Positions 877 to 54,036 of a stretch of DNA of 64,000 bases are shown here, piece after piece. The stretch is taken from contig CAMWUK010000005.1 in assembly GCA_947177415.1 (NCBI GenBank), positions 1,290 to 65,289 on the forward strand, in the 5' to 3' direction. The position numbers were made by a program, and so were the translations under genes. Every line of letters starts with the position of its first letter. Within the stretch, counting starts at the first letter, position 1. Below the pieces are notes generated by a model, which saw only the letters and a list, made by a program, of their open reading frames with translations, had not been told where the DNA came from and searched no databases. This stretch comes from an uncultured Clostridiaceae bacterium (GTDB lineage Bacteria > Bacillota > Clostridia > Lachnospirales > Lachnospiraceae).

Positions 877-1065
877 TTTCCTTTCCTTGGTGTTAATACA
901 ATATCTCCTTTTTAAAAAAATGTTGCTGTATCATTTATTTTGCTATTACAAGCTGTGAACGAAAACAATATTTTTTACTACACCCTGTTGTACCAAACAC
1001 CAAACTTATACATACATAAACATAATTATTCTCTTTACCTTTTTCATGTCTTTCTCCTTCACCTA

Positions 1066-1566: not shown

Positions 1567-1723
1567 TTTCTATATCCCTTCATCATTATTTATGTAATTT
1601 CGTTATACAACTTTTGTATTATATATTATTTTTTCGGTTCACTGGTTCCTTGTGCCACTATGAATGTAGCTGATATTTTGTTTTTATGTAATAACATTAT
1701 AAATTGGAATTCATTGCATAAAT

Positions 1724-2149: not shown

Positions 2150-2230
2150 GATTGTGTCCCCCCAACCAGAATTTCTTGTTGCTTATCTGTCTAAAATCCA
2201 TACATCATTGATTTTAAAAAGGTCAAACAC

Positions 2231-7711: not shown

Positions 7712-7846
7712 GTAACTGTTCAGAACCATGAACAGTTACATTTAAGCCCATAATTATTCGCCTTCGGCGAAGGGGCTTAAACATTGCAAAATTTACTTTT
7801 TCTTACGAAACAAGCAGTAAATGCTTGTTTCTACCTAAATAGTTAC
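7712..7846 (+). mobile_element. MITE-like element, family A, full length
   Basis: TIRs GTAACTGTTCAG / CTAAATAGTTAC. Three internal hairpin modules. Perfect 8-bp direct repeat ATTTTCTT at 7704-7711 and 7847-7854. Confidence 0.85.
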
Positions 7847-10023: not shown

Positions 10024-10533
10024 TCAATTATTCATGTTATATATTATTCCCTCTAGTCTCAACAATTCTACTTTTTTCTCCAATCCTCCTGCATATCCAG
10101 TGAGATTACCATTTGCCCCTACCACTCTATGGCATGGCACAATAATAGAAATGGGGTTATGTCCTACTGCACCTCCAACCGCCTGTGCCGACATTCTGCT
10201 TATACCTCGTTTTTTCGCAATTTGTTTTGCAATCTCTCCATAAGTAGTTACTTCACCATAAGGAATTCCCATTAAAATATCCCATACTTCTTTGCGAAAT
10301 TCACTTCCCTTTAGAGAGATAGCAGGTGTAAAATCTGGCTCTATCCCACTAAAATAAATATCCAGCCATCTGGCAGTCTCATCAAAAATTGGCAAAGATT
10401 TTTTTATAGAATCTTCTGGAACCTCACTTTCATAGTATTTTTGCCTTTTAAATACTAAGCTGGTTAGAGTTGTTCCATCACTTACCATTATCATTTCTCC
10501 AAGTGGAGCATCATAACATTTCTGAAAATACAT
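10024..10533 (-). CDS. ogt: Methylated-DNA--protein-cysteine methyltransferase
   Basis: Active-site motif IIVPCHRVVG and HTH region GEVTTYGEIAKQI. ATG at 10533 has an AAGAGGTG RBS. Confidence 0.9.
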   Translation of the reverse strand: MYFQKCYDAPLGEMIMVSDGTTLTSLVFKRQKYYESEVPEDSIKKSLPIFDETARWLDIYFSGIEPDFTPAISLKGSEFRKEVWDILMGIPYGEVTTYGEIAKQIAKKRGISRMSAQAVGGAVGHNPISIIVPCHRVVGANGNLTGYAGGLEKKVELLRLEGIIYNMNN

Positions 10534-26313: not shown

Positions 26314-26448
26314 GTAACTCTTTAAATAGAAACACGCATTTACTGCGTGTTTCGTAAGAAGAAGTAAATTTTGTAATGTTTAAGCCCCTTCGCCAAAGGC
26401 GAATTATTATGGGCTTAAACGTAACTGTTCATGGTTCTGAACAGTTAC
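26314..26448 (-). mobile_element. MITE-like element, family A, full length
   Basis: Reverse complement of the 7712/31286 copies. 8-bp direct repeat AGAAAATT (26306-26313) / AGAAAATC (26449-26456), 7/8 identical. Supplies the last 13 codons and the stop of the ABC ATPase. Confidence 0.85.
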
Positions 26449-31285: not shown

Positions 31286-31420
31286 GTAACTGTTCAGAAG
31301 CATGAACAGTTACGTTTAAGCCCATGAATATTCGCCTTCGGCGAAGGGGCTTAAACATTGTAAAATTTACTTTTTCTTACGAAACACGCAGTAAATGCGT
31401 GTTTCTACCTGAATAGTTAC
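31286..31420 (+). mobile_element. MITE-like element, family A, full length
   Basis: TIRs GTAACTGTTCAG / CTGAATAGTTAC. 8-bp direct repeat CCTTCCTT (31278-31285) / CTTTCCTT (31421-31428), 7/8 identical. The TIR supplies the kinase stop codon. Confidence 0.85.
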
Positions 31421-32814
31421 CTTTCCTTTAATAGCGGAAAAGTAAGTGACACCTTAGTTCCACACTTTTCCTTGCTTTCTATTTCAAATTTTCCGTGATG
31501 TGCTTCTGTAATCGCTTTACATAATGACAGACCAATACCTGCTCCCCCGGCACTTCGGGAACGAGCCTTGTCCACCATATAAAACGCCTCCGTTACATGT
31601 GCAAGCTGTTCTTGTGGTATTCCTATTCCATAGTCTTGCACACGAAGTACAGCCTTCCCTCTTTTTTCTTCCAAAAATATATCAATAGGCTGCTCTGGAA
31701 AAGATGCTTTGTTTGCATTATCCAGTAAATTCAAAATAAGGGACGTAAGCAAAATACTGTCTGCATTAATCATCACCGCTTTCATGTTGCATTGCAGGAA
31801 ACATTGATGCTCTTCACAAATTGGTGAAAAAGTTGCTATTGCTTTCTCTACTAATTCCTTAAGATCAACAGGCTGTAATTGCAATTCCGTTTCCTGCAAA
31901 GAAATCAGTTCCATAAGCTTTTGGGAAAGTAATCTCAGCCGCTTGGCTTCAGCAGCAATAATAGAGGCATACTCTCTACATTCATCCTCTGTAATATCAC
32001 TTTTAATTTTTAATATATCAGCAAATCCAAGAATTGAAGTCAGTGGTGTTTTAAGTTCATGTGTCATATTTGCAATAAAAGTTTCCCTGCTTTTGGAAAT
32101 TTCTTCAATTCTACTAATATTGGCTTCAATTTGTGCAGACATGGCATTCATGTGTTCTGATAATTCTGTGATTTCATCATGACCTTTTATAGCAATCCGG
32201 TTCTGGTATTCGCCGTTGGCAATCCGTTTTGTCATGGTTTCCAAGTGTTTTAATGGTTGTGTCAATATTAAACTGGCTACAAGTAATGCTACCGCCATAC
32301 AAAAAGAAACAACGCCTCCAAACCACTGACTAAATACAAGATCTTTTTCAAATTGAACAAGCAAACTAGAAATATTAGAAATAACCGTAATCCGGTAAAA
32401 ATGTCCCTCCCAAAATACAGTCGTATCTGCCTCAATCAAAGATTGCTCTTTTCTATCATTTATGAATGTCATTTGGAATTTATCTGCATCCTTCGGGAGC
32501 TGCTTCACAGAATCATGCCTAACTGCAATGGGAGTTATCTTAATTTCACAATCCGAAAATAAATCATCCGTTTTCTCTGACAGCAAGTCCATAATCTCCT
32601 GTTCCGTTAATACAAAATATCCTGTCTGCTCTTTTTCATTTTGTACACTTCTCTCCAGTTCTGATACTACAGCTTCACAAACTGCTTGTGCTTTTTCTTT
32701 GGCTAAAATAAGGCTGTTTTTATGTTCACGGATCATAAGTATGTAAGAAACACTATTAACAGCCAATATGGCAAGAAAAAGAGTTAGTAAGAAAAATTTT
32801 TGCCAGAGTTTCAT
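31417..32814 (-). CDS. Sensor histidine kinase
   Basis: Two TM segments, HAMP, H-box MTHELKTPLTSILGFADIL, G-boxes DYGIGI and GGAGIGLSL. Confidence 0.9.
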   Translation of the reverse strand: MKLWQKFFLLTLFLAILAVNSVSYILMIREHKNSLILAKEKAQAVCEAVVSELERSVQNEKEQTGYFVLTEQEIMDLLSEKTDDLFSDCEIKITPIAVRHDSVKQLPKDADKFQMTFINDRKEQSLIEADTTVFWEGHFYRITVISNISSLLVQFEKDLVFSQWFGGVVSFCMAVALLVASLILTQPLKHLETMTKRIANGEYQNRIAIKGHDEITELSEHMNAMSAQIEANISRIEEISKSRETFIANMTHELKTPLTSILGFADILKIKSDITEDECREYASIIAAEAKRLRLLSQKLMELISLQETELQLQPVDLKELVEKAIATFSPICEEHQCFLQCNMKAVMINADSILLTSLILNLLDNANKASFPEQPIDIFLEEKRGKAVLRVQDYGIGIPQEQLAHVTEAFYMVDKARSRSAGGAGIGLSLCKAITEAHHGKFEIESKEKCGTKVSLTFPLLKER

Positions 32815-32818
32815 TCTA

Positions 32819-33475
32819 TCACTCCATTCCCAGCAGCTTATAGCCGTATTTTGGTACAGTAACCAATAGTCCTTGAAGATTTAACTTTCTTCTCACTTGC
32901 TGTACATGGGTATCTACTGTTCTTGTTTCTCCCTCATACTGATAACCCCAAATTGTTGCAAGTAACGTTTCTCTAGAAATTACAATGTCCTGATGCTGAA
33001 TAAAGAAAGATAACACATCAAATTCTTTTGGCGTGAGTGTAACAAGCATCCCATCCTTTGTTATGGTATGTTTTTCAATATTCATACTTATATTTCCGTA
33101 CTCAAGAACATCCAAAGTTTTTTTATACCGCTTCATTACCAAATCAATTCTTGCCAATAACTCTAGCGTCTCGAATGGTTTTACAATATAATCCTCAGCT
33201 CCGGATTTCAGACCACGCACTTTGCTTGTGACATCCTGCATGGCAGTAAGATAGATAACTGGCACACCACAGTTCTTGATCTTTTCCATAACTTCAAATC
33301 CATCCATTTCTGGAAGCATAATATCCAGTAAAACCAAATCATAGTAACTACTTGTTACCCTCTCCACTGCACTCTTGCCATCCATACAGATTTCACTTTC
33401 ATAATTTCCAACACTTAAACAGGTTTGAATGTATTTTGCAATATTTACATCATCTTCAACAATTAATATTTTCAT
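32819..33475 (-). CDS. OmpR/PhoB family response regulator
   Basis: Receiver (ILIVEDD...LLDIMLPEMDG...KP) plus winged-helix output (LTPKEFDVL...TVDTHVQQVRRKL). Confidence 0.9.
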   Translation of the reverse strand: MKILIVEDDVNIAKYIQTCLSVGNYESEICMDGKSAVERVTSSYYDLVLLDIMLPEMDGFEVMEKIKNCGVPVIYLTAMQDVTSKVRGLKSGAEDYIVKPFETLELLARIDLVMKRYKKTLDVLEYGNISMNIEKHTITKDGMLVTLTPKEFDVLSFFIQHQDIVISRETLLATIWGYQYEGETRTVDTHVQQVRRKLNLQGLLVTVPKYGYKLLGME

Positions 33476-33485
33476 AAGAAATCCT

Positions 33486-33651
33486 TTCTGTAATATTAGC
33501 CTTGAAAAATTTATTCCAACATTTCTATCTATTATCAGGAGTTCTACTTCCAGACATTCTTTTTTCTTTTTCCCTGAAAAGCATTACTACCTTTTATAGT
33601 ATACTTGATTTATTACTGGTTTTCCATTTTACTTTTGCTTTGCCACACATT
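33486..33651 (+). repeat. Copy 1 of a duplicated ~166-bp non-coding segment
   Basis: About 85-90% identical to 34007-34123 plus 34271-34314. Abuts the response-regulator start codon. Confidence 0.75.
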
Positions 33652-33825
33652 CCATTCCATGTATTGCTTTCACTTTAATCAGCCCTTTCACTGGTATGGT
33701 GAAACTGATTATATCAGTGAAACTTTTTTGTGTCAACTCTATATCTCTCACTAATACTTCTTCTATAAGCGAAAATATATTCTTCTTACATTTATCCACA
33801 AAATCCAGATTAAATGTTGTTTATG

Positions 33826-33962
33826 AGTAACTATTCAGGTAGAAACACGCATTTACTGCGTGTTTACGTAGCAAAATGTAAATTTTGATTGTTCTAAGCC
33901 CTTCGCTGAAGGCGAATTATCATGGGCTCAGAACATAACTGTTCATGGTTCTGAACAGTTAT
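33826..33962 (-). mobile_element. MITE-like element, family A, diverged full-length copy
   Basis: GTAACTATTCAGG...CTGAACAGTTAT. Perfect 8-bp direct repeat GTTTATGA at 33818-33825 and 33963-33970. The module stem has compensatory changes. Confidence 0.8.
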
Positions 33963-34006
33963 GTTTATGAATAATTAACCTCTTGTGGAAGCTCCTGTAT
34001 ATATTG

Positions 34007-34314
34007 CACTACCGCCTTTTCTGTAATATTAGCCTTAAAAAATTTATTCCTACCTTTCTATCCATCACCATGAGTTCCACTTCCAAACATTCTTTTTTCC
34101 TGAAAAGCATTCCTACCTTTTATAGTATGCTTGCGTAAATCCCACTAGAAATTGCAAAAACAATGTATTCACCACTTTACAACTCTTTAATAAAAAACAT
34201 AGCATATTCACCAATTGCAATATGAGAAATTTGCTAGGAAATACAAAAGAAAGAAATAGTTAATATGTATGATTTATTACTGGTTTTCCATTTTACTTTT
34301 GTTTTGCCATACAT
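34007..34314 (+). repeat. Copy 2 of the duplicated segment, interrupted by ~147 bp
   Basis: Matches 33486-33651 in two blocks (34007-34123 and 34271-34314). Unrelated sequence fills 34124-34270. Confidence 0.7.
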
Positions 34315-34424
34315 ACCTTTTAATTTTAACTGATAAGTCTGCTTTATATTGTTATAACTATAACTACAAAAAAGACAGGGTAACTTCATTTTAAAGTTCC
34401 TGTCTTATTTAAGTCTTTTTTACG

Positions 34425-34464
34425 GTCTGCACAGCAGAGTGTGCAGACCTACCTGAACTGTTAC
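34425..34464 (+). repeat. Partial MITE end (family D-like hairpin plus TIR)
   Basis: GTCTGCACAGCAGAGTGTGCAGACCTACCTGAACTGTTAC parallels 48914-48954. Confidence 0.6.
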
Positions 34465-34475
34465 AATAATTTCAT

Positions 34476-34784
34476 TCAAACAGGCTGCAAAACCTTGACT
34501 GCCTTCACTTCCTCTACTGTCAATCCTGAACATTGTGCAATCTCTTCCAATGTCAATTTACCATTGTTTAACAGATTTTTTGCAATCTCTATTCGCTCTT
34601 CTCTCATTTCCTTTGCAACAATATCTTCTACAATCTTACACATAGAACTTTGTCCCTCCTTATCTGTCTTGAAATATCTGGCACGGTTTGCCAATTCTAT
34701 ATAATTCATATCTTCGGGATTCGTACAACTGAAGTCATGCATCAGTTTTCCAAGTGGTGTGTTATCTTTAATTTCTCCATTCAC
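34476..34784 (-). pseudogene. C-terminal remnant of an Rpn-type (PD-(D/E)XK putative transposase) family gene
   Basis: 102-aa ORF. LGKLMHDFSCTNPEDMNY...YFKTDKEGQSSMCKIVED...GKLTLEEIAQCSGLTVEEVK resembles the C-terminal third of ~300-aa clostridial Rpn-family proteins, from recollection. The N-terminal nuclease domain is absent. Confidence 0.45.
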
Positions 34785-35014
34785 ATATATAATATGTGCA
34801 TCATCTCCAAAAAGCTCTCCTGTTTCTTCAATTCTTCTATGCTATTCTTAATAATACAATGAAATTCATAAACAAATTCATAGAGAGTTAAAGGCAAAAA
34901 ACAAAATTCTTTATTAAGTATTATCATGTACGAAATCATCATTGAGATAACTCCTGCTATTGCCATAAGTTTAATCATTTTCACTTTAAGATTCATAACA
35001 ACGTATTTCTCCAA
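34781..35014 (-). CDS. Possible small hydrophobic protein
   Basis: 77-codon ORF with a TTG start 2 nt after the upstream stop. One TM-like segment (LMAIAGVISMMISYMIIL). Weak support. Confidence 0.3.
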   Translation of the reverse strand: MEKYVVMNLKVKMIKLMAIAGVISMMISYMIILNKEFCFLPLTLYEFVYEFHCIIKNSIEELKKQESFLEMMHILYM

Positions 35015-35016
35015 CT

Positions 35017-36411
35017 TTAATAAATATTATCCATATCAAAACCCAACTGCATCCTTGTTAGAAGATCATCCATAGTTGGATAAAACTCTTGTATATAATT
35101 ATATAAATCCATATAATTTATATATATTTTTCTAAAATCATCAAGATTGAAATCTATGTCTATTAAATACCTGGAAAAAGAAGAATCTGTCCCTTCGTTA
35201 TAATGGATAAATGATGTTAAATTCCATAGATATTCAAAAACCTGCTCTTCTAGATATGGCTCTATCAGCTCTAACAATTTTATCAAATCATGCGTATCAA
35301 TCCTTTTTACATAGTTTTGCACTTCCTCCTGTGTATTCAGAATTTGTTTTTTCAAGTCTTCATTAACAAAAATTAATTTATATGCTAATTCCACACTTTG
35401 TCTAAAATTCATAAATACGGGAAAATACAAACCATATAATTTAGTATCAACCTTTCTCTGCTCAATCATTTTATTTCCCATGCATAAACATTTCAATTTT
35501 GCTATTTCTTGATTAATCCTTTCCTCTTCACCTAATGTAATGTGAGTAAAAAATATTTCAGATAGTATTTGGGTAGCATACTTATAATTTCTATACTGAT
35601 AATAAAACGGCATTGCAGAATTGAATAATAAACCATCATACAAAATCAATGACACATTACGTCCTGCCATATTATCAAAATACGAATTTTTTACATTGTC
35701 ATCTTTTTTATAAAGTTTTTCGCTTTTATCTAAAAACTTACTTCTATTCTTCTGTATATATTGGGATAATTCACAAATGTTACTAAGTATTTTTAATCCG
35801 TTTTTCAATTCTTCTCTGTATAAATTATTTGGATTAATTCTTTTTTCTACATCTCTACGTAAAATCTCAAATTTGTCTTCATATTCTGTAATAGATTTCT
35901 TTTTGTATTTGCAGATATTGCTAAATAACCTAATATTGAATCTGGTAATCGCATATCTTTCAGCCCAACAGTTATCCATATTGCATTTTGCAAAATCTAG
36001 CAAATCAAGATATGTACTTTTTTTCTTTTCTATATAATCTTTAAACTCAAAGTTAAAATTATATCTTTTCACTTCCCTTACTTTACCCTTTAATTTTCCT
36101 GAACGGTTATTTTGATAATATACTTCATCATCAAATAATTCGACAATGTAAATGTATCTAACACTTTCTCCAAAAGAAAGAATTTGTCTGCCATGGAATA
36201 AACCTAATATATTAAACTCTTTTCTTTTCTCAGTAGGTGTTGGTTCAAGTGTTTCACGATTTGAATACACAAAAAAGAACATATCATTCTTATCTTCTAT
36301 ATCTGCAAAAAAAATTCTATTATAAATGGCTACATCATTTTTTATTTCCCTACCTGTTGCCTTATAACAAACAGCATCATAATCTTTCTTTTCTATAGAA
36401 ATATCAATCAA
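35017..36411 (-). CDS. Unknown 464-aa protein, last large gene of the candidate defence operon
   Basis: Long uninterrupted ORF in very AT-rich DNA. TTG start with an AGGGAG RBS 9 nt upstream. No motif I can assign; no Walker A. Confidence 0.7.
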   Translation of the reverse strand: MIDISIEKKDYDAVCYKATGREIKNDVAIYNRIFFADIEDKNDMFFFVYSNRETLEPTPTEKRKEFNILGLFHGRQILSFGESVRYIYIVELFDDEVYYQNNRSGKLKGKVREVKRYNFNFEFKDYIEKKKSTYLDLLDFAKCNMDNCWAERYAITRFNIRLFSNICKYKKKSITEYEDKFEILRRDVEKRINPNNLYREELKNGLKILSNICELSQYIQKNRSKFLDKSEKLYKKDDNVKNSYFDNMAGRNVSLILYDGLLFNSAMPFYYQYRNYKYATQILSEIFFTHITLGEEERINQEIAKLKCLCMGNKMIEQRKVDTKLYGLYFPVFMNFRQSVELAYKLIFVNEDLKKQILNTQEEVQNYVKRIDTHDLIKLLELIEPYLEEQVFEYLWNLTSFIHYNEGTDSSFSRYLIDIDFNLDDFRKIYINYMDLYNYIQEFYPTMDDLLTRMQLGFDMDNIY

Positions 36412-36470
36412 AACTCTTCACTCCCTCTGTCTTTTTAATTACTAAAACCATCATCATTAATCAACCCATC

Positions 36471-39400
36471 TTACATTTTCTTTATATGCTCCTCAATAAA
36501 ATCTACTTCTTCTTCTGACAAACCATACTTTTCATAAAGCTGTCTATCAATTTCATCAATTGACTTACTCCAATCAATATCCGATGTAGACTTAAAATTC
36601 TGCATAGGGATATTTCCCCATGTATCTCTGGGGTTATCTTGTGTAACTTTTAAAGTTCCTAGCATAGTCCTTGCAAATTTTGTTTTTATATATTTTAATA
36701 ATGCCTCTGCCTCATCACGATTAGAAAACTTTCCAATACTTAAAAAAGTCACTGTATGCCCCATAGCAGGTTCTCCTATAACCGGTGTTGAGAGAACTTC
36801 CCCTAATGCCCCTGTCCCATTTGATTTTGCTACAAACACTTTATAATAATCAAAATTATCAGGTACTTTCAAATATTTCTTCTTTATCCATCTTTCAATA
36901 CGTTTATTATTATTTCTGCCAAATACTTTTGCATATTCATCATCTGGTTTGTTTTCTAAAAACAATTCTGGAAATACATCAAATACATTTGAACCTACAT
37001 CATATTTGTGTCCTTGACTTTGTCTATCCTGTACCCATTTATTCTCACTATATAATTCATCTGTCAAATGATACAAATCTCTGGGATACACCATTTCTGA
37101 AAAAGAAACAAAATTATCTGTTATTACCTTATTCATTATTGAATATACTTCCGGATAAACTGTAAATGTTCCTATCTTTCCAAACTCCTGATTCGAATCC
37201 CACATTGACACAGTAATACCGCCTTTAACATCAACACTTGGAAATACTTCTCTACTATCCATCCAATAATCTACAACTTTAAAATGTTCATCATTTAGAA
37301 TTTTCTTATTCCAATCCTTTGGAGTCTTTCCTGCATTAAAAAGAAACCTTCCTGGATGAATAAAGGTACCTAAACCACATATTGAACGTGCTGCATCTAT
37401 AAACAAATGATATATAGGATTAGAACCTTTTCCATCTCCTTGGTTTGTTAATTGATATGGTGGATTTCCCACAACTGCATCAAATTTCATCTCGCCATCT
37501 CCAATCTTCCAATAACTTTCTTTTATGACTTTTTTCACAAAATTATCTGGCTTATTCTTAAGCATATTAATTAGATTTTCAAAATAATGAGCATTTACTT
37601 TATATTCCTTAAAACCTGCCAGTGTTCTTTTTGTAATCTGCTTTGCCATTGGTGTCTTACAAATAACAAAAACATTATTTTCTACTGTTTCCTTCCATAT
37701 CTCATCCTCAAGTGTAACAGTAATATCTAGCTCTGTATATTCCTTTCGTCTTGCTCTATATATGCTATAAGCAACATATAATGGATATAATCCTGTTTTG
37801 GAATTTATCTCTAAAATCCTTGCCTTTTTATTTACCAGCGTATCTCTTGTCACTCTCTCATGCTCTACAAAGACAGGCTCTCCATCTATTCTTTTGTTAT
37901 TTTCATCATAAAATGTGTATCCGCCTAAGCAATCTCTCATGTGCATATTAACTACACGCCATGGTGTCAATACTGTCTCCTTATCTGGATTCTTGAAACA
38001 AGAAAACAAATCTGCAATTTTCTGAACCCTCTCTGTTGGTGGCAAACGGTCTGCTGAAACTACCGTGTTCCGAATTTTCCGTCCGGCTTCTACAAAGATT
38101 TCTGGGTCATAATATTTCATAAACTCCCGAAACATTTCCTTGGTAACACCATTGGGCATAAATTCATCCCATGATGCTGTGTCCACAATTTCATCATCAA
38201 GAAACATGTCTAATGTAAAATCCTCATTGATATCTATATTTGCTCCATAAATTAAAAGCGGCATACGAATAGACACTGCTCTTAATATGGAAATAGCTAT
38301 GTTTCTTTGCTCTTTTTTCTTCTTAACTTTCTCATAAAAGGCTTGCTCTTCTGGTGTGCGTTGCTTTTTTGGTTTTCCCTCTATTTTTTGAATTTCTTCA
38401 TATTCTTCTTCTGTAAATCCTTGTGCATTAATGTCTATGTCCTTTGACTTTGGTGCGGCTTTCGAAGTTCCAACCTGTTTTTTTAAGTTCTCAAATTTCT
38501 TCCAATCAACATCATCCAACTTCAACAACTCATCATTGTATAAGTTGACATCATCAAATCCATTTTTCACTGCCTTTTCTGCATACGCACGCTTTAACTG
38601 TTGCAATAACTTATTTGTGTTATATGATTTCATTCTTGTTCCATCTATAGAAATCACAGGACAATAATTCAAAAATTCTCCCATAATCCTTTTTCCTGCT
38701 TCTTGGGTTTTTCCTGCTTTTGTGGAAAGTGTAGCATATTCTGCCACCATTTTTAATGTTCTGTCAGGAGCAAAATCAAAAACATAACAATGCGTTTTTA
38801 TTTTTCCATCTTTGTTACATGGCGATTGCACTCGGAAAATCGTCTGTAAATAATTTGCGGCAGATGTAGAATACGAACCAGCTAACATCAGCACTGCTGT
38901 CCATTCACGGACAGTCACCCCTGTAGTTAGTTTTCCACAGGACAATGTTATCGTGTAGCCATCTTCTCCAGCATCTGCAATTGCTTTCTTTACCTTACTG
39001 AGTGCTTCATCAGACTTTTCTTCCTCATCACCTTCTCCTGCCACATTGACAATTTCGAACATGCCACTTCCAAATACAGGATGATTCCTCATCATCTTAC
39101 TAAGTGCCTTTGCCTCTTTTACTCCTGGCACCATCCATAAAGAATGTTTAAACAATTCACGATACTCTTCCCTAGCATAAGGATAACAGCTTTCTTCATC
39201 TTCCTTTGTAATCAGATTCAAAAAACTCATCACATCATTTTTATGTACAAAATCTCCAATTTGCACATTTCCCGATATCTGCTTATGGTCACTCTTTATA
39301 TCTCCTGTCCATGTCCGAAAAAACTCCCGGAAATTAAATGCCCTATCTTCCAATTCAACATATTGGTCACTTTTAATCAATTTGCCCAAATCATATGTAT

Positions 39401-40505
39401 ATATTTTCATTTCTGGCAGTTCTTCATACGGATTAGAATCTCCAAAATGTGTTTTATTCCATTCTTTTTTTGCTGTTTGCTCCATTACATAATCCCATGT
39501 ATAAATATTATCTTCATACTGTTCCAAACGGTTAAATGGTGTTCCTGATAATTCTAACACTTTTGTCACATGGCTACTATCCCGTTTTTCCAATGCCGCA
39601 CGAACATTTTCACCCAATTCTGTGTTTGTTCCCTCGTGAGCTTCATCAATTATGATAAAATCCCAGTCTAAATTAAACACTTCATTATTTTTATCAAATT
39701 TACCACCCACTGCACTGGAACCACGCAAATCTTGCATTGAAGCAAAATAAATAAATTTCTTTCCTGACCTTTCTAACTCTATCACCGAATTTCCCTTGCT
39801 CCTTGAGCCATAAAGATATCCATCTTCTTTTCTAAATATCTTGTCAAAATCTTCATACCAGCCATCGTCAACAACCGGGCGATGTGTAATAATTATAGTT
39901 TTATGGAAATCCGCTTCTTTTACCACCTGCAAAGCAGATAAGGTTTTTCCAAAACGCATTTTAGCATTCCATAACATGGTATTTGTTGTTTTAAATTGCA
40001 TTAGCGTTTTTTTGATAGCCTCTTTTTGTTCCGGGCGAAATTGAATTTGTAATGTTACAACTTCTGATGTTCCTGCAAGATTATTATGACAATCCTTTAC
40101 TGCCTGAATTGCTCTTTTTACAGTGTTCAAATCAACTTTAAACCATTCTTGTCCAGTTGAATCTTGAAATCTGTGTTTTTTATATCCAGAATTTTCCAAC
40201 ACACGATGTACCTCATGATCTGAAAACGCCTGTAAAATCAATACACCATCTTCTTTTTTTACTGTTTTAATTGCTAATTCCGTATAAATTGGATTTGATG
40301 ACAATCCCAGAGTATTTGTATACTCCTTTATTCTTTCTTTTGCAGCCTGATTTAATTCATGACAACAGGCAGGTAACTGTTCAGGTGTCCTGTCTGTATT
40401 TATAGATGCTTTCCCCACCTTCAACATCCCTTTATGGTGTTCATCCTTCACTTCATACACATAAACAATATTATATTCAAATGAATTTAGAAATGCTTTG
40501 TCCAT
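36471..40505 (-). CDS. Fusion protein: T5orf172/GIY-YIG-like domain, SF2 (ResIII/DEAH) helicase, gamma-class N6-adenine DNA methyltransferase with C-terminal TRD
   Basis: 1344 aa. N-terminus: IVYVYEV..GMLKVGKAS..HRVLEN..QEWFKVDLNTVKRAI. Helicase: RFGKTL (motif I), IIIDEAHEG (II), LSGTP (III), GKLTTGVTV (V), QTIFRVQSP (VI). MTase: VLTPWRVVNMHM (X), ILEINSKTGLYPLY (degenerate I), VVGNPPYQ (IV). Confidence 0.85.
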   Translation of the reverse strand: MDKAFLNSFEYNIVYVYEVKDEHHKGMLKVGKASINTDRTPEQLPACCHELNQAAKERIKEYTNTLGLSSNPIYTELAIKTVKKEDGVLILQAFSDHEVHRVLENSGYKKHRFQDSTGQEWFKVDLNTVKRAIQAVKDCHNNLAGTSEVVTLQIQFRPEQKEAIKKTLMQFKTTNTMLWNAKMRFGKTLSALQVVKEADFHKTIIITHRPVVDDGWYEDFDKIFRKEDGYLYGSRSKGNSVIELERSGKKFIYFASMQDLRGSSAVGGKFDKNNEVFNLDWDFIIIDEAHEGTNTELGENVRAALEKRDSSHVTKVLELSGTPFNRLEQYEDNIYTWDYVMEQTAKKEWNKTHFGDSNPYEELPEMKIYTYDLGKLIKSDQYVELEDRAFNFREFFRTWTGDIKSDHKQISGNVQIGDFVHKNDVMSFLNLITKEDEESCYPYAREEYRELFKHSLWMVPGVKEAKALSKMMRNHPVFGSGMFEIVNVAGEGDEEEKSDEALSKVKKAIADAGEDGYTITLSCGKLTTGVTVREWTAVLMLAGSYSTSAANYLQTIFRVQSPCNKDGKIKTHCYVFDFAPDRTLKMVAEYATLSTKAGKTQEAGKRIMGEFLNYCPVISIDGTRMKSYNTNKLLQQLKRAYAEKAVKNGFDDVNLYNDELLKLDDVDWKKFENLKKQVGTSKAAPKSKDIDINAQGFTEEEYEEIQKIEGKPKKQRTPEEQAFYEKVKKKKEQRNIAISILRAVSIRMPLLIYGANIDINEDFTLDMFLDDEIVDTASWDEFMPNGVTKEMFREFMKYYDPEIFVEAGRKIRNTVVSADRLPPTERVQKIADLFSCFKNPDKETVLTPWRVVNMHMRDCLGGYTFYDENNKRIDGEPVFVEHERVTRDTLVNKKARILEINSKTGLYPLYVAYSIYRARRKEYTELDITVTLEDEIWKETVENNVFVICKTPMAKQITKRTLAGFKEYKVNAHYFENLINMLKNKPDNFVKKVIKESYWKIGDGEMKFDAVVGNPPYQLTNQGDGKGSNPIYHLFIDAARSICGLGTFIHPGRFLFNAGKTPKDWNKKILNDEHFKVVDYWMDSREVFPSVDVKGGITVSMWDSNQEFGKIGTFTVYPEVYSIMNKVITDNFVSFSEMVYPRDLYHLTDELYSENKWVQDRQSQGHKYDVGSNVFDVFPELFLENKPDDEYAKVFGRNNNKRIERWIKKKYLKVPDNFDYYKVFVAKSNGTGALGEVLSTPVIGEPAMGHTVTFLSIGKFSNRDEAEALLKYIKTKFARTMLGTLKVTQDNPRDTWGNIPMQNFKSTSDIDWSKSIDEIDRQLYEKYGLSEEEVDFIEEHIKKM

Positions 40506-40506
40506 A

Positions 40507-41478
40507 TTATTCCGCTCCTCTCACAAGCGAATGATATGATAATGATTCATTCGCCCTCCAATCTTTAATCATACAATAAGGGGCTATTATCTCTAGTTCC
40601 TCTTCAAATGTCCCATATTCTTCTTCCACTTCTATAAAGTCAAATATATTCATTTGATGCCTTTGTTTTTTTACTGCACCAAATGGAATTGTCATTGTAA
40701 GCCCATCCATTTGCCACAAATTCCATGCAATAATATTAGCAACTTCCTTTAATTGCTTTAATTCAGGCTCACAATCAAATTTGTATTTCATATTATCAAT
40801 AAAAGTATATAAAATATTTTCTCTTGCTAACAAAAGATTATCACCTTGATACTCATATCCATACACACTCTGCACTGCCCGTACTGCCCATTTCAACCAT
40901 TCATCTTTATTATCTGTATTTTCATTTATAACTCTAAATTTTCTATCTAGCAAACCAATACGTCTATGTACTGGCAACATCTTTCCTGTGACTACGTCAT
41001 ATCTGCTTACAAGATAGGGTGCTTCCCCACAGGATATTTCCATTCTCCTTGCATCAACATAGTCTTTCCATGTCTTCCCCTTTTTTTCTGAAAAAACAAT
41101 CTTTTTTACGCTATTATGCCAATTTTTCTCGGTTTCAATATTAAATACATTTTTTCTTCCAAACCAACGTTCATCTATCAAGTTATTTTGCTCATTACAA
41201 ATCCATGATGGTGTAAATACTTCTGCTTTATCTTTAGTTCGGTTACTTTGACTTGTTTTTGCCTTTGCCACACGGGGTTGTATCACTTTGCTATGTATTC
41301 CTGTAATATTTGAAAGAGTAATCTCATCCTGTTCATCAAATCCATCTCCCAACTCCTTATAATCCTTTGTTGCCCAAATAATATTATGCCTTGTTGTTTT
41401 ATCTTTCAACAAACGACTTAAAACTTCTCTTCCAAATTGCAGGATGACATCCTCGCTAATATCTATACTTTCACTCAT
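40507..41478 (-). CDS. Methyltransferase-fold-like protein lacking the catalytic (D/N)PP(Y/F/W) motif
   Basis: 323 aa. AEVFTPSWICNEQNN (motif X-like), EISCGEAPYLVSRYD (motif I-like), VYGYEYQGDNLLLARENIL. No PP dipeptide anywhere. Its stop is 1 nt from the ATG of the 1344-aa gene. Confidence 0.7.
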   Translation of the reverse strand: MSESIDISEDVILQFGREVLSRLLKDKTTRHNIIWATKDYKELGDGFDEQDEITLSNITGIHSKVIQPRVAKAKTSQSNRTKDKAEVFTPSWICNEQNNLIDERWFGRKNVFNIETEKNWHNSVKKIVFSEKKGKTWKDYVDARRMEISCGEAPYLVSRYDVVTGKMLPVHRRIGLLDRKFRVINENTDNKDEWLKWAVRAVQSVYGYEYQGDNLLLARENILYTFIDNMKYKFDCEPELKQLKEVANIIAWNLWQMDGLTMTIPFGAVKKQRHQMNIFDFIEVEEEYGTFEEELEIIAPYCMIKDWRANESLSYHSLVRGAE

Positions 41479-41710
41479 TGAAATTTCACCGCCTACCTAT
41501 ATAAACGAAACTCTAACATAAATTTTAACATAAAAAGTCAGTTGAATAAAGCCAAATCTACTTTTGTATATTGGGGCAACCTCCTTCCTCCTCCTAATTC
41601 CATCCACTCTTTGTACCCATTCTAACAGCATTTCTTTTTTCAATTGTTCCATTAAACCTTTTTTATCAATCTGCAATATACAATCCCAATTATTAAAATT
41701 GAAAAAATCG

Positions 41711-41718
41711 TGTATAAT
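41711..41718 (+). promoter_or_regulatory. Extended -10 promoter element for the WYL regulator gene
   Basis: TGTATAAT lies ~95 nt upstream of ATG 41814, in the divergent intergenic region. Confidence 0.4.
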
Positions 41719-41813
41719 AGTTTTATGGAAAATGATACCATTACACAACACTTTCATTTATGGTGTTACCGCAACACAACATGATCATTTACTATAAGAG
41801 GAGGAGACAACAA

Positions 41814-42734
41814 ATGAAAACCGAACGTCTTTATGCTATAACAATATACCTTCTTAATCATGGAAGAACGTCTGCCAGTGAATTGGCGAGGTATTTTGAA
41901 GTATCTGTACGGACAATACAACGGGATATAGATTCTCTTTGCCTTTCAGGCATTCCTATCATTGCAGTTAATGGAGCAACAGGAGGATATGAAATATCTA
42001 ACGGATTTAAATTGGATAAAGAATTTGCTACCTCAGACGACTATTCTTATATTTTGACAGCACTACAAGGACTGATATCCGCTACCAACCATCCAACAGC
42101 AAAACATATATTGGAAAAAATACTTCATGTGTCAAACCCAAATGATAATGGTATTATTTTGGATTTTTCTGTTTTGCGTGAAGGAGATCAAACTACCCTG
42201 CAGATGCTGCAAACTGCTGTACTCGAAAAACATACTGTTAATTTTATATATACAAACAATAATAATGAAACCCGCACACACAGCGTAGAACCCATTGCTG
42301 TCCTTTACAGATGGTATGCATGGTATCTTCTTGCCTATTCTAAAATAAAAAATGATTACCGTACCTACAAACTTGTACGAATGAGAAATTTAGAAATTAC
42401 TGACATACCTTTTATAAAGGAACATGAGCCTGCAGATCTTATTTTGAAAATGACAGATAAAACAGACTGCCGTCAATATACAGATGTACTTGTTAAATGC
42501 AAAGAATCGGCAAAGGCACGGGTTATAGAATATTTAAACGGAACTATTATTGAGGAATCTGCAAATGGTTATTCTTTAATAAAACTGATAGTGGTTGAAA
42601 ATGAGCAATCTTGGATTGGAACGCTATTATCTTTAGGAGACAATGTAGAGATAGTTTCACCAGAAAGAATTCGTAATCGTGTAATAGAAGCTGCCACAAA
42701 AATTCTTTCTTTATATAACTGTTCAGAACTATGA
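41814..42734 (+). CDS. HTH-WYL domain transcriptional regulator (YafY/BrxR/CapW-like architecture)
   Basis: N-terminal HTH RLYAITIYLLNHGRTSASELARYFEVSVRTIQRDIDSL. WYL region VEPIAVLYRWYAWYLLAYS..YRTYKLVRM. GAGGAGG RBS before ATG 41814. Confidence 0.85.
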   Translation: MKTERLYAITIYLLNHGRTSASELARYFEVSVRTIQRDIDSLCLSGIPIIAVNGATGGYEISNGFKLDKEFATSDDYSYILTALQGLISATNHPTAKHILEKILHVSNPNDNGIILDFSVLREGDQTTLQMLQTAVLEKHTVNFIYTNNNNETRTHSVEPIAVLYRWYAWYLLAYSKIKNDYRTYKLVRMRNLEITDIPFIKEHEPADLILKMTDKTDCRQYTDVLVKCKESAKARVIEYLNGTIIEESANGYSLIKLIVVENEQSWIGTLLSLGDNVEIVSPERIRNRVIEAATKILSLYNCSEL

Positions 42735-42788
42735 CACTCTGTTGTCATATATGCTGTGTTATACTAGTAAAAAAAAGGAGGTGGCTAT

Positions 42789-43352
42789 ATGATTAGTCCA
42801 TACGAAAAATGTCCCATATATGAAAATGAAAACTATCTTTTAAGGTTTATTGAAGCTTCTGATGTGTCTGATTTGCTTTCTGTGTATTCTGACGAAAAGG
42901 CTGTACCCTTCTTCAACAGCGATAATTGTAATGGCAATTTCCACTGTACATTATTAGAACATGTACAGGGAATGATAGAAGCATGGCAATGGGAATATAA
43001 ACAAAAGGGATTTGTACGTTGGTCAATTATTGACAAAAAAATTCAGCATGCAATAGGAACCATTGAACTATTTAATCGTCATGCAGATGATTATTTTAAT
43101 GATTGTGGCATATTACGATTGGATTTAAGGAGTGATTATGAGCAAACCAAACATATCTTTGAAATATTGTCTCTTATCATCCCATCAACATTTGAACTAT
43201 TCAACTGTCAGATGATTGCAACAAAGGTTCCGAATTTTGCTTCTAATCGTAAATTGGCAGTAGAACAATTAGGTTTTACCGCTTCTATGGAAAAGTTGAT
43301 AGGTGGGCATGATGGGAAGATTTACACAGATTATTATGTCTTGAAAAAATAA
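42789..43352 (+). CDS. GNAT family N-acetyltransferase
   Basis: 187 aa. YLLRFIEASDVSDLLSVYSD...FVRWSIIDKK..AIGTIELFN resembles the RimJ/RimL-type GNAT fold. Confidence 0.7.
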   Translation: MISPYEKCPIYENENYLLRFIEASDVSDLLSVYSDEKAVPFFNSDNCNGNFHCTLLEHVQGMIEAWQWEYKQKGFVRWSIIDKKIQHAIGTIELFNRHADDYFNDCGILRLDLRSDYEQTKHIFEILSLIIPSTFELFNCQMIATKVPNFASNRKLAVEQLGFTASMEKLIGGHDGKIYTDYYVLKK

Positions 43353-43356
43353 TATA

Positions 43357-43408
43357 CCGAGATTATTGACGCCCTTAAGCATGAACTAAGTCTTATGTAA
43401 GACGAAAC
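43357..43408 (+). repeat. Short repeat (family E)
   Basis: About 39/45 identical to the reverse complement of 50567-50612. Confidence 0.55.
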
Positions 43409-43435
43409 TTGTATAACTGACAATAAATTTTAGTA

Positions 43436-43463
43436 GTAACTGTTCATAGTTCAGAACAGTTAC
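43436..43463. repeat. Bare TIR-TIR hairpin of the GTAAC family
   Basis: GTAACTGTTCATAGTTCAGAACAGTTAC, with a 10-bp stem. Confidence 0.7.
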
Positions 43464-43663
43464 TATTTTTTTACTTTATAGGAAAGTTCGTCCTATAAAG
43501 TAAAAACGCTCCGCTTAGGATGTGCACAGATGCGTAAGGAATATTGTTGCAAAAAAACATGCAACACGCATCTGGCACGCAAAGTGTGCAACCCCCTCAT
43601 GAATGAGCGGTTTAGGGGAGTTGATGTGGGCTTGCCCACTTTGTTCTTTTAAAGTACTTTTCT

Positions 43664-45266: not shown

Positions 45267-46166
45267 ATGATGAAATGGATTCGCAAAGAAAAAACAGCTA
45301 ATATCTCTTATGAAGAACAGATTAAAAGTGCAGCGGAACTTATAGAAAAATCAGAAGTCCTGCTGATTGGAGCTGGTGCCGGAGTTTCAACAGCAGCCGG
45401 ACTTACTTACAGCGGTAAACGTTTTACAGATAACTTTAGTGAATTTATTGAGAAATATGGTGCTATGTCTATGACAGATATGTATACCGCAGGCTTTTAT
45501 CCTTTTCCTACACAAGAAGCCAAATGGGGATATTGGTCAAAACACAGCATAATAAACCAATTCTTACCACCTGCTATGCCTCTATACAAGCAACTCTACA
45601 ACTTGTTCAAAGAGAAGGATTATTTTGTTCTGACCACAAATGTTGATCACCAATTCCAAAAGGCCGGTTTTGACAACAATCGTATCTTTGCAACACAAGG
45701 TGATTATGGGCTAATACAATGTGAAAAGGGATGCCATCCAAAAACTTATGATGCCGAAAATTTATTTTATCAAATGAACCAGGCAAGAACAGACTGTCTG
45801 ATTCCCTCTTATATGGTTCCCAAATGCCCCGTTTGTGGTGGCAACATGACAATGCACCTACGCTGTGACCAGTATTTTGTAGAAGATGAAAATTGGCATA
45901 AAGCAGCAAAAAATTATGGAAATTTTCTAAATAATATGAGAGATAAAAAAGGAGTATTACTGGAATTAGGTGTGGGATTTAACACCCCTGCTATTATTCG
46001 TTTTCCTTTTGAAAATATGGTACATGAGAACAGCAATTTGTCACTTATCCGTTTGAACCTAAAAGAAGCTGTTGTTCCTGAAAGCCTTGGAAACAGGGCA
46101 ATCGGCATAGATGCAGATATAGCAAAAGCAGTATCTGATTTATGTGCAGAATTTCGCAACCATTGA
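45267..46166 (+). CDS. SirTM-like (class M) sirtuin, putative protein ADP-ribosyltransferase
   Basis: GAGAGVSTAAGL, TTNVDHQF, and a Zn-ribbon (QCEKGC...CPVCGG). Gln sits where canonical sirtuins have the catalytic His (FATQGDYG). Confidence 0.75.
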   Translation: MMKWIRKEKTANISYEEQIKSAAELIEKSEVLLIGAGAGVSTAAGLTYSGKRFTDNFSEFIEKYGAMSMTDMYTAGFYPFPTQEAKWGYWSKHSIINQFLPPAMPLYKQLYNLFKEKDYFVLTTNVDHQFQKAGFDNNRIFATQGDYGLIQCEKGCHPKTYDAENLFYQMNQARTDCLIPSYMVPKCPVCGGNMTMHLRCDQYFVEDENWHKAAKNYGNFLNNMRDKKGVLLELGVGFNTPAIIRFPFENMVHENSNLSLIRLNLKEAVVPESLGNRAIGIDADIAKAVSDLCAEFRNH

Positions 46167-46198
46167 GAGAAGTTTTCATAAAAAAGGAGGATTGTGCT

Positions 46199-46987
46199 AT
46201 GACACATAGTGAGAAAAGACTATATCTGATTAAAGAATTATTATCCGAACTGCCCCAATATAGAAATATGAAAATCCCAGATAATATTGATGAACAGAAA
46301 AGACTTTTTAGAAGCCTTATGAACATTCGCCCTCCTCACCCAATAGAAACAGAATTTCTCAAAATACAGGACGAATATCTGGGTGAGGAAGTCTTAGAAA
46401 AAGGAATTACCGACAGTGCTGCTTTACCTGTATCCCCTGTTAATAACCGTCTTATTCTCTGGCGTGGTGACATTACCACATTAAAAGTTGATGCAATTGT
46501 AAATGCGGCGAATAGTGCTTTAAGGGGCTGTTTCGTGCCATGTCATTCCTGTGTGGATAACATTATTCACAGTGTTAGTGGTATACAACTTCGTTTGGCT
46601 TGTGATGAGATTATGACAAAGCAGGGACATGATGAACCGACAGGCAAAGCCAAAATTACACCTGCATTTAATCTGCCATGTAATTATGTGCTTCATACTG
46701 TTGGACCAATCGTATTAGGGCAGCTTACCAAAAATCATTGCAGGCAGTTGGCTGATTGCTACCTATCCTGTCTGAAGCTTGCTTCGAAAAGTAAATTAAA
46801 AAGTGTTGCCTTCTGCTGTATTTCCACAGGGGAATTTCACTTTCCGCAGGAAAAAGCTGCTGAAATCGCAATAAAAACAGTATCAGATTATTTACAGACA
46901 GATACGCAGATTGAAAAGGTGGTATTTAATGTTTTCAAGCAGGAAGATTATGACATTTACAAAAGGTTACTCACATATAGACATTAA
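46199..46987 (+). CDS. Macrodomain protein (protein-ADP-ribose hydrolase type)
   Basis: LWRGDITTLKVDAIVNAANSAL, VDNIIHSVSG, HTVGP, CCISTGEFHFP. ATG 46199 after an AAGGAGG RBS. Confidence 0.85.
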   Translation: MTHSEKRLYLIKELLSELPQYRNMKIPDNIDEQKRLFRSLMNIRPPHPIETEFLKIQDEYLGEEVLEKGITDSAALPVSPVNNRLILWRGDITTLKVDAIVNAANSALRGCFVPCHSCVDNIIHSVSGIQLRLACDEIMTKQGHDEPTGKAKITPAFNLPCNYVLHTVGPIVLGQLTKNHCRQLADCYLSCLKLASKSKLKSVAFCCISTGEFHFPQEKAAEIAIKTVSDYLQTDTQIEKVVFNVFKQEDYDIYKRLLTYRH

Positions 46988-54008: not shown

Positions 54009-54036
54009 GTAACTGTTCAGAACCATGAACAGTTAC
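54009..54036. repeat. Bare TIR-TIR hairpin of the GTAAC family
   Basis: GTAACTGTTCAGAACCATGAACAGTTAC, identical to module A of family A. Confidence 0.75.

Follow-up and report, generated by a model that had tools for sequence, protein, structure and literature searches.

A predicted HEPN-like domain in a small, unnamed family of gut Firmicutes proteins

We analyzed a stretch of 64,000 nucleotides (nt) from an uncultured Clostridiaceae bacterium (GenBank assembly GCA_947177415.1, contig CAMWUK010000005.1, positions 1,290 to 65,289), hereafter the window, and in particular a gene on its minus strand that encodes a protein of 464 amino acids (aa), called X below. The gene is real and under purifying selection. 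X is a member of a small family that has no name and is found in gut Firmicutes; its C-terminal domain is predicted to have a HEPN-like fold and to form a homodimer. The best explanation of these features, to which we give about even weight, is that X is a dimeric HEPN-type abortive infection (Abi) or guard effector, a self-contained module representing a new HEPN family; its putative RNase activity, toxicity and trigger, and any link to failure of the neighbouring restriction-modification (R-M) enzyme, are inferred.

The gene and its family

The gene and its start were delineated as follows:
35017..36411, minus strand: gene for X, 464-aa protein with a TTG start and a TAA stop (open reading frame calls, shuffles, homologues, ratio of nonsynonymous to synonymous substitution rates)
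36421..36426, minus strand: AGGGAG ribosome-binding site, 9 nt before the TTG (read from the sequence)

The open reading frame (ORF) has a G+C content of 26.7%, compared with 35.1% for the window and with 34.5% and 33.7% for the two genes upstream, and the bin 35001-36000 shows the minimum (0.270) among the 64 bins of the window. At the base composition of the ORF, a codon is a stop with a probability of 0.099, and a run of 464 stop-free codons has a probability of about 8e-22; none of 2000 shuffles contained an open frame of more than 172 codons, and the mean length of the longest frame was 71 codons. Thus, the gene is real, which also agrees with the existence of full-length homologous clusters and with low ratios of nonsynonymous to synonymous substitution rates (0.11-0.14 in those pairs of homologous loci that are less saturated, with synonymous rates of 0.5-1.6). 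The original prediction, that so long an uninterrupted frame in such AT-rich DNA argues for real coding, is borne out by all three lines of evidence. The TTG start with its AGGGAG site stands as first proposed, and the first residues of the homologues line up with it.

The family comprises 36 other protein clusters that align to X over the full length with 34-59% identity, or 37 clusters among 5.8 billion when its own is included; a second search found 27 representatives, many of them fragments, among 1.84 billion. The closest homologues, P0003-P0005, are 57-59% identical to X and come from contigs of up to 16 kb. In the sources, Eubacterium sp. and Blautia caecimuris, the proteins are named 'hypothetical protein'. 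Among 401 genomes of the window's family, 3 contain X, the genome of the window included, and X was not found in the one other searched genome of the window's genus. There were zero matches to X in Pfam, PADLOC, NCBIfam and PHROGs. A tblastn search found X neither in 72,556 plasmid records nor in 50,697 phage records, and a scan of viral contigs revealed no relative. X is also absent from PADLOC-DB 2.0.0; the family has no name to search by, so its absence from the literature cannot be claimed. The description of X as an orphan therefore holds in that no named family includes it, and fails in that homologues exist.

We fetched 13 loci with X (L001 to L013), 5 from genomes and 8 from metagenomes, some of them near-identical; L004, L008 and L013 were too short or not scanned. 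The gene is frameshifted in three of the 11 distinct loci, L001, L012 and L005, all of them outside conjugative elements, and all copies on conjugative elements are intact. The breaks lie at an A7 tract in L001 (about 10380-10400) and at an A9 tract in L012 (about 10640-10660), whereas L005 is broken by an 8-nt tandem duplication. The intact gene of the window has an A7 tract at codon 130, the same place as the break of L001, and a T8 tract at codon 33. The two breaks at homopolymers could be assembly errors or else reflect slippage-prone on/off switching. Rarity, patchiness and disruption of X together make the pattern usual for costly defence or toxin genes.

Domain organization and predicted fold

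An AlphaFold2 model of X was built on 24 sequences (predicted local distance difference test score, pLDDT, 81; predicted template modelling score 0.73). Combined with the alignment, it divides the protein as follows:
36046..36411, minus strand: residues 1-122, beta-rich domain at the N-terminus with the lowest conservation, no known fold found (AlphaFold2 models, fold searches, conservation)
35719..36045, minus strand: residues 123-231, helical region (AlphaFold2 model, fold search)
35620..35718, minus strand: residues 232-264, strongly conserved linker (LYxRNDNxKNxYPxNMxG ... FNSAxPF), low model confidence (alignment, AlphaFold2 model)
35020..35619, minus strand: residues 265-464, predicted HEPN-like four-helix bundle

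Strands fall between residues 15 and 118 and helices from residue 123 onward, with a helical domain at residues 123-226 and a conserved linker that is poorly modelled at 232-258, so that the beta-rich N-terminus and all-helical remainder first described from the sequence are confirmed in the model. The bundle consists of helix 1 (266-311), helix 2 (324-351), a helical-hairpin insert (361-386), helix 3 (389-406) and helix 4 (433-453). Conservation increases toward the C-terminus: the mean fraction of the majority residue is 0.55 for residues 1-122, 0.57 for 123-231, 0.73 for 232-264 and 0.66 for 265-464, with peaks of 0.86 at 324-355 and 0.90 at 400-416.

Fold searches with residues 1-232 gave no known fold and no nuclease fold. 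Foldseek found nothing at an expectation value (E) <= 0.001 for the N-terminal model against the PDB. In other searches, Foldseek against BFVD found nothing at the same threshold, the A1 profile had 0 matches at E <= 10 among PDB sequences, and a search of the ESM Atlas by features gave no usable match. A D...E-D-K pattern near the N-terminus had been considered compatible with a PD-(D/E)XK nuclease core. The pattern is present in X and is not conserved in the family: residue 26 is D in 12 of the 24 members, residue 39 is E in 6 and residue 40 is D in 7, and none of the three is among the invariant or near-invariant columns of the alignment. The nuclease reading is not supported, since its motif is not conserved. 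The reported lack of a Walker A motif, on the other hand, extends to the whole family (0 of 24 members).

In an exhaustive structural comparison, HEPN proteins were at the top for model residues ~257-461. The scores were as follows:
AF0298 (2hsb): 11.2, root-mean-square deviation 2.7, 121 of 126 residues aligned
AMPylated HEPN toxin (8xdj): 10.8
1wol and 4nqf: 9.6 each
1wwp, 1ufb and the sacsin HEPN domain (3o10): 9.4 each
HEPN domain of AbiA (8oz7): 9.1

The structural neighbours also include the KNTase_C-type substrate-binding domains 1jog, 3jyy, 6nlt and 2pbe. The ESM Atlas's own model of X matches a PF05168 cluster over residues 263-452, with a template modelling score of 0.70 by target.

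A two-copy prediction of residues 230-464 reached an interface score (ipSAE) of 0.73, compared with 0.00 for the best of 3 controls, with contact agreement of at least 53% across three runs and pLDDT of at least 70. The mark was reached by 20 of 30 solved pairs and 1 of 23 solved single chains, a calibration that is only rough here, where our own alignment was used; the passing score may partly reflect likeness to solved HEPN dimers. The predicted interface is formed by residues 271-286 and 323-338, at the starts of helices 1 and 2. It coincides with the most conserved blocks of the protein, YxQYRNY and YGLYFPLxMNF, and R337 adjoins the two-fold axis.

Putative active-site residues

Two invariant motifs lie in the predicted bundle:
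35377..35403, minus strand: codons R337 to K345 (FRQSxELAxK), with invariant R337, E341 and K345, that is, Ex3K in helix 2 (24 of 24 members; the usual place of this motif according to PMC3710099)
35158..35172, minus strand: codons R414-Y-L-I-D418 (SFSRYL[IV][DN]), with an invariant R just after helix 3, D or N at +4 and no conserved H after it (alignment, model; aligned to SFxMRYP of stand-alone relatives)

E341, K345 and R414 are each found in all 24 members, E341 and K345 within the helix 324-351. H374 (codon at 35290..35292, minus strand), likewise invariant (24 of 24), is located inside the helical-hairpin insert between helices 2 and 3 (361-386) of the model. Helix 3 is followed by the invariant block E406-x2-D409-x-S-F-S-R414-Y, and the full set of invariant polar residues is R337, S339, E341, K345, N350, E351, H374, E406, D409, S411, S413, R414, D435, Y439 and E442.

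HEPN helix 2 has a conserved acidic residue, usually in the form Ex3[KR] (PMC3710099), and the Rx4-6H site of HEPN domains falls where helix 3 ends or where the loop towards helix 4 begins. In AbiV and the AF0298-like HEPN-T proteins, the motif His is missing, the basic residue is kept, and an alternative conserved His comes from an insert between helices 2 and 3 (PMC3710099, Anantharaman et al. 2013). By helix order in the predicted model, E341-x3-K345, H374 and R414 would stand where that survey puts Ex3[KR], the alternative His and the motif Arg, respectively. An Rx4H beginning at R414, with H at +5, is present in 2 of the 24 members.

Distant families and a possible link to HEPN

The profile search also found P0055, a 209-aa stand-alone protein with 9 relatives (alignment A4). 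By hhalign, X matches A4 with a probability of 96.5% (E 8e-10); the alignment of 131 columns spans helices 2 to 4 and pairs the SFSRYL of X with the SFxMRYP of A4. The best Pfam match of P0055 is HEPN (PF05168), below threshold (E 0.053; 14.1 bits compared with a cut-off of 22). From the window's family we gathered PF05168 proteins in 78 of 301 genomes and compared 28 of them; at the motif site they have R-x3-D-Y or ARYP. When A4 was compared with two PF05168 proteins of the ARYP type, hhalign gave a probability of only 20.7% (E 0.0011), but the motifs ExxxK, K-x-H-x-L and RYP were aligned with one another. A search of PDB sequences with the A4 profile returned a single chance match.

A second distant family, A3, comprises proteins of 400-420 aa in more than 220 clusters and has an 89-column core in common with X (hhalign 91.5%, E 8.8e-7); against the same 28 PF05168 proteins its hhalign probability is 0.1%. 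One A3 member of 419 aa, in which the conserved core shared with X reads NARHSxELxLK ... HxHDI ... YYFDxxGDAFKYE, is encoded directly after an AbiH gene (PF14253, 6.4e-41) at L016 (G203:C13), 685-2875, minus strand. The two genes form a possible two-gene AbiH system; the link rests on this one locus, and the AbiH-linked A3 family was found in 1 of 251 genomes.

Genomic context in the window

Four genes follow one another on the same strand, with X at the end, 59 nt past the 1344-aa gene, which agrees with the placement of X at the distal end of an operon in the original prediction. The surrounding features are:
34476..34784, minus strand: transposase fragment (C-terminal part) of the Rpn/PD-(D/E)XK family, which marks the island edge (PHROG 3300, 3.1e-11; TIGR01784 below cut-off)
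34781..35014, minus strand: putative 77-aa ORF starting 2 nt after the stop of X, N-terminal segment hydrophobic; no such ORF seen behind X in L001 (ORF list)
36471..40505, minus strand: 1344-aa gene, T5orf172 (GIY-YIG-type) + ResIII helicase + Eco57I-type methylase (Pfam; PADLOC REase_MTase_IIG, 5.9e-40)
40507..41478, minus strand: 323-aa methyltransferase-like gene, orthologue of the first operon gene of relatives, 52% identity (PADLOC MTase_II, 5.6e-121)
41497..41757, minus strand: 86-aa ORF heading the same-strand gene row (ORF list)
41760..42734, plus strand: divergent HTH-WYL-WCX regulator, BrxR-like (Pfam, PADLOC)

A scan for promoters and terminators was uninformative, with 49 and 4 sites found compared with 47.6 and 3.3 expected.

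Several further observations concern the surroundings of this operon. A 24-nt palindrome, AACTGTTCA-N6-TGAACAGTT, occurs in 7 copies in the window (17-40, 7714-7737, 26423-26446, 31288-31311, 33937-33960, 43438-43461 and 54011-54034) compared with 0 expected. Two of the copies bracket an island at ~33.96-43.44 kb that contains the Rpn fragment, X, the helicase-methylase operon, the WYL regulator and a GNAT gene. The palindrome may be a repetitive extragenic palindrome (REP)-like element, a terminator or a recombination site. The leader of a response-regulator gene (32819-33475) is duplicated ~530-660 nt further on (33485-33656 and 34018-34320) in three direct-repeat families of 87-93% identity, which may be a scar of island insertion or rearrangement. 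Inverted repeats of ~130 nt (31286-31420 and 33827-33961; 102 nt at 81% plus 30 nt at 93%) flank a pair of histidine kinase and response regulator genes (31417-33475), so that mobility or inversion of this two-component system as a unit is conceivable. A short way past the WYL regulator are the GNAT acetyltransferase gene (42789-43352, plus strand) and a gene for a 281-aa Macro-domain protein (46142-46987, plus strand). Genes related to ADP-ribose may recur around the core system, given this Macro domain and the PARG that follows the orthologous operon in L032.

Orthologous operons and the variable slot behind them

A match to the 1344-aa core protein (E <= 1e-50) was found in 21 of the 401 genomes of the window's family, and only the genome of the window has X as well. 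In the 10 loci from relatives (L030 to L039), a methylase-like gene of ~315 aa comes first, then one of ~345 aa for the methylase part (in some loci these two are fused to ~660 aa), then a T5orf172/MUG113-helicase gene of ~1110 aa, and the operon genes are orthologous to those of the window with identities of 52%, 48% and 35%. The window (36471-41478) has its Eco57I-type methylase fused to the C-terminus of the helicase protein, whereas in the relatives (L030, L031 and others) it is a separate upstream gene or is fused to the 315-aa gene (658-691 aa). None of the 10 loci has X after the operon. Its slot contains:
L030: AAA_21 ATPase + RiboL-PSP-HEPN
L031: 130-aa ORF without a family
L032: microbial PARG
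L033: GmrSD
L034: RtcB fragment
L035: nothing on that strand
L036: GmrSD_N + RiboL-PSP-HEPN + Rpn transposase
L037: unscanned 124-aa ORF on the other strand, before the contig end
L038: sugar genes
L039: DUF349

Thus, X occupies a variable add-on slot, which in two relatives holds canonical HEPN modules. This position matches published observations: a link to R-M systems has been noted for at least 16 HEPN clades (PMC3710099), and genes nested within defence systems often have defence roles of their own, among them that of the HEPN protein HEC-08 (10.1101/2024.01.29.577857).

Contexts of X in other loci

The commonest context of X, seen in 5 of the 13 loci, is a conjugative element that encodes (by Pfam) a polyvalent protein of ~2700 aa (LPD25 + Eco57I-type methylase + SNF2 helicase), DUF6664, X, a DUF3991-Toprim primase and a MobA/VirD2 relaxase. 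The arrangement is fixed in L002, L003, L007 and L010, and L009 has its upstream part only. In L009, a group II intron reverse transcriptase/maturase (RVT_1, GIIM; 140-1768) stands at the place of the giant polyvalent gene, upstream of DUF6664 and X. We found no paper on the DUF6664 family.

The other contexts are diverse: (i) in L001, the neighbours of X are DUF4391 on one side and Mod on the other, in a type III system that has an additional SNF2 helicase, (ii) in L012, HsdR-HsdM-HsdS is followed by X, a 606-aa unknown protein and a Ppl-like PHP-ATPase, (iii) in L006, X adjoins an N6_N4 methylase in an element with RepA_N, ParB and DUF3801, (iv) in L011, an Rpn transposase is followed by X, with a C5 methylase three genes before it, and (v) in L005, X is found between sugar-utilisation genes and a Schlafen/AlbA_2 protein.

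X behaves as an independent add-on module, because the core protein and X overlap only in the genome of the window and because X occurs beside four unrelated kinds of methylase systems and in conjugative elements. The original prediction had proposed an effector or Abi-like accessory of the R-M-like pair. Its Abi-like effector gains support from the HEPN-like C-terminal half, the recurrence beside R-M systems and the variable defence slot; a dedicated accessory of this particular pair does not fit the single overlap among 21 core-bearing genomes and the other contexts.

Comparison with known systems

The AF0298-type HEPN-T proteins (PF05168; 2hsb, 1wwp, 1o3u, 1ufb, 1wol) have a layout like that predicted for X, namely Ex3[KR] in helix 2, an Arg without a His after helix 3 and a His in the insert, and their family clusters with R-M operons (PMC3710099). 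They are stand-alone proteins of 120-150 aa, usually paired with a minimal nucleotidyltransferase, whereas X has 464 aa with 260 extra N-terminal residues, a longer hairpin insert, no nucleotidyltransferase neighbour and no significant profile match to them. The motif site also differs: R-x3-D-Y or ARYP in PF05168, R-Y-L-[IV]-[DN] in X and M-R-Y-P in its stand-alone relatives.

The lactococcal AbiV is a single-protein abortive-infection effector, an RNase that degrades rRNA. As described for this protein (10.1101/2024.05.05.592566), its closest solved structures (3jyy, 2hsb, 1ufb, 3o10) are the same set as those of X; its canonical HEPN dimer is formed mainly by the first two core helices, as predicted for X; its catalytic motif follows the second core helix and is flexible, being disordered in most subunits; and the canonical Rx4-6H is not always kept by its family members. 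Unlike X, AbiV has 201 aa, the motif 91-RNHKSKH-97 and an RNA antitoxin encoded beside the gene, in the manner of type III toxin-antitoxin systems. HEPN_AbiV (PF18728) does not match X and was found in 0 of the 401 genomes of the window's family and in none of 14 control genomes.

PrrC and RloC, the anticodon nucleases embedded in type I R-M loci, resemble X in having a HEPN-type C-terminal effector domain and genes that lie in or end R-M operons, as X does in L012, L001 and the window. They differ from it by an N-terminal ATP-binding cassette (ABC) ATPase and a canonical Rx4-6H, X having neither a Walker A motif nor any ATPase family in Pfam or PADLOC. A back-up suicide when restriction is disabled is the model put forward for R-M-linked HEPN genes (PMC3710099; 10.1101/2024.01.29.577857).

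The RiboL-PSP-HEPN modules, together with AAA_21 or GmrSD_N, take the same slot after the orthologous operon in L030 and L036, and HEC-08 is a DUF3644 HEPN protein that is embedded in an Hma (helicase-methylase-ATPase) system and was shown to defend (10.1101/2024.01.29.577857). Both differ from X in that they keep Rx4-6H (mutation of H128 abolishes defence by HEC-08) and have other partner domains; between X and the two RiboL-PSP-HEPN proteins from the slot of the relatives, hhalign gave a probability of 0.2%. The operon of the window recalls DnmA-YeeB-YeeC, which consists of an MmeI-like methylase, a helicase and a T5orf172 protein, and whose role in defence is described as unsettled, the system being inactive in B. 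subtilis and Vibrio deletions having altered phage sensitivity (PMC9973331).

HEPN effectors linked to R-M systems are thus already recognised, whereas none of the models searched in Pfam, NCBIfam, PHROG and PADLOC captures the family of X, whose N-terminal architecture is new.

Evidence against a HEPN effector and alternative explanations

A number of results weigh against X being a HEPN effector. At the level of sequence, no conserved Rx4-6H was found at any shared column of the 24 members, as already remarked for X alone in the original prediction; these members gave only scattered chance rows and no HEPN family when compared with Pfam at E up to 10; and the C-terminal half of X showed no similarity to the 28 PF05168 proteins (hhalign probability 0.2%). 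At the level of structure, Foldseek with the full model found nothing in the PDB at E <= 0.001; all structures of X are predicted; residues 408-427 have pLDDT below 50; and the mapping of H374 and R414 follows helix order in the predicted model.

The genomic surroundings add to these points. No antitoxin or immunity gene was identified for X. There is no tandem array near X beyond 2-4 short AT-rich copies and no Rfam match at E <= 1 in 33000-43600, a search that a novel RNA antitoxin would escape. Finally, the conjugative slot as the commonest context would equally suit an establishment or anti-defence gene. Two candidate antitoxins were considered and dropped: the 77-aa ORF, which is absent after X in L001, and DUF6664, which is present only in the conjugative-element loci.

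The alternatives start from different parts of this evidence. One is that X is a non-catalytic HEPN-like regulator or adaptor, binding a ligand, a nucleic acid or a protein in the way of sacsin and the nucleotidyltransferase substrate-binding domains, and serving as a sensor or scaffold, not as a toxin. It would explain the lack of a conserved Rx4-6H and the KNTase_C-type domains (1jog, 3jyy, 6nlt, 2pbe) among the structural neighbours, the motif being lost in such versions (PMC3710099), and the missing antitoxin would be easier to explain for a harmless protein. Yet the set of invariant polar residues in X is unusually dense, and PMC3710099 keeps the term 'inactive' for domains without such residues; AbiV, which was shown to be an RNase, has its catalytic motif in the flexible segment that follows its second core helix; and the breakage of X in three of 11 distinct loci suggests a cost. 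We regard a non-catalytic X as unlikely.

A rather doubtful alternative is that X is a gene of conjugative elements acting in transfer or establishment, for instance in counter-defence, entry exclusion or control of incoming DNA, and that the copies beside R-M systems are secondary. The single fixed place of X in 5 of 13 loci, the intactness of all conjugative-element copies, and the RepA_N, ParB and DUF3801 genes of L006, which are also of conjugative or plasmid type, speak for this. However, X is located within a type III operon, after a type I operon, and after the helicase-methylase operon of the window, on contigs without transfer genes nearby, which would be odd for counter-defence, and the plasmid records mentioned above do not contain it. 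To our knowledge, HEPN folds are typical of toxins and defences and not of known anti-restriction proteins, which also counts against a primary role in transfer.

It is improbable that the C-terminal domain is a generic four-helix bundle without an evolutionary link to HEPN, in a protein with some other function. X itself indeed could not be linked significantly to any HEPN family by sequence or profile, and the bridge through P0055 is below threshold (E 0.053; hhalign 20.7%). On the other side, the structural matches span whole target chains (115-137 residues each), the independent ESMFold model leads to the same family, three separate motifs fall, by helix order in the model, at the motif places of HEPN-T and AbiV, and the dimer is predicted to form through the first two core helices, an arrangement also described for AbiV.

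Very improbable, lastly, is a dedicated subunit (for specificity, regulation or cleavage) of the neighbouring T5orf172-helicase-methylase enzyme: X does follow the 1344-aa gene by 59 nt on the same strand, with no terminator-like site between them on that strand, and its conjugative copies also follow an Eco57I-type methylase + helicase protein, but only 1 of the 21 core-bearing genomes (the window's own) has X and 0 of the 10 loci from relatives do, X also accompanies type I, type III and N6_N4 methylase systems, and its PD-(D/E)XK motif is not conserved.

Proposed mechanism and implications

If X is a HEPN effector, its poorly conserved N-terminal part, beta-rich and then helical, would presumably be responsible for sensing or regulation, and the conserved C-terminal domain would dimerise through helices 1 and 2. 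Once triggered, the dimer would cleave RNA (rRNA, tRNA or mRNA) and halt the growth of the infected cell, by analogy with AbiV and other HEPN toxins. The proposed catalytic residues are H374 in the insert between helices 2 and 3, R414 after helix 3, and the face of helix 2 formed by R337, E341 and K345. X would move between islands and conjugative elements, using the variable slot behind R-M-type operons in the former and the fixed conjugative slot in the latter. In an attractive guard version of this mechanism, inhibition of the neighbouring R-M enzyme would make X fire, by analogy with PrrC, whose ATPase X lacks.

As a HEPN domain, that of X would be an alternative-histidine version, and together with the two sister families it may define a clade marked by R-[QH]-S-x-E-L-x-x-K, T/x-H-x-L and S-F-x-x-R-Y. 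A bolder form of the proposal, speculative and in our estimate improbable as a whole, is that X, the AbiH-linked family of 400-420 aa and the 209-aa family form an unrecognised HEPN clade with the active site [YF]P-x5-R-[QH]-S-x-E-L-x-x-K in helix 2, T/x-H-x-L in the insert and S-F-x-x-R-Y after helix 3 instead of Rx4-6H. In X, this domain would be coupled to an N-terminal sensor of a new fold that watches a methylase-helicase machine, either an R-M enzyme or a conjugative polyvalent protein, and it would fire when an anti-restriction protein of a phage or plasmid blocks the machine, making X a PrrC-like guard without an ATPase.

If X is indeed a HEPN effector, the finding would have several consequences. 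The family and its two distant sisters would replace Rx4-6H by other invariant residues, and motif-based screens would overlook such effectors. X would provide a concrete example of a variable last slot behind a helicase-methylase operon that is widespread in gut Firmicutes, and the presence of the same module in a fixed conjugative slot would be relevant to the spread of defence genes in the gut microbiome. Finally, R337, E341, H374 and R414 would bear on the use of an alternative histidine by AF0298-type HEPN domains, as proposed in 2013.

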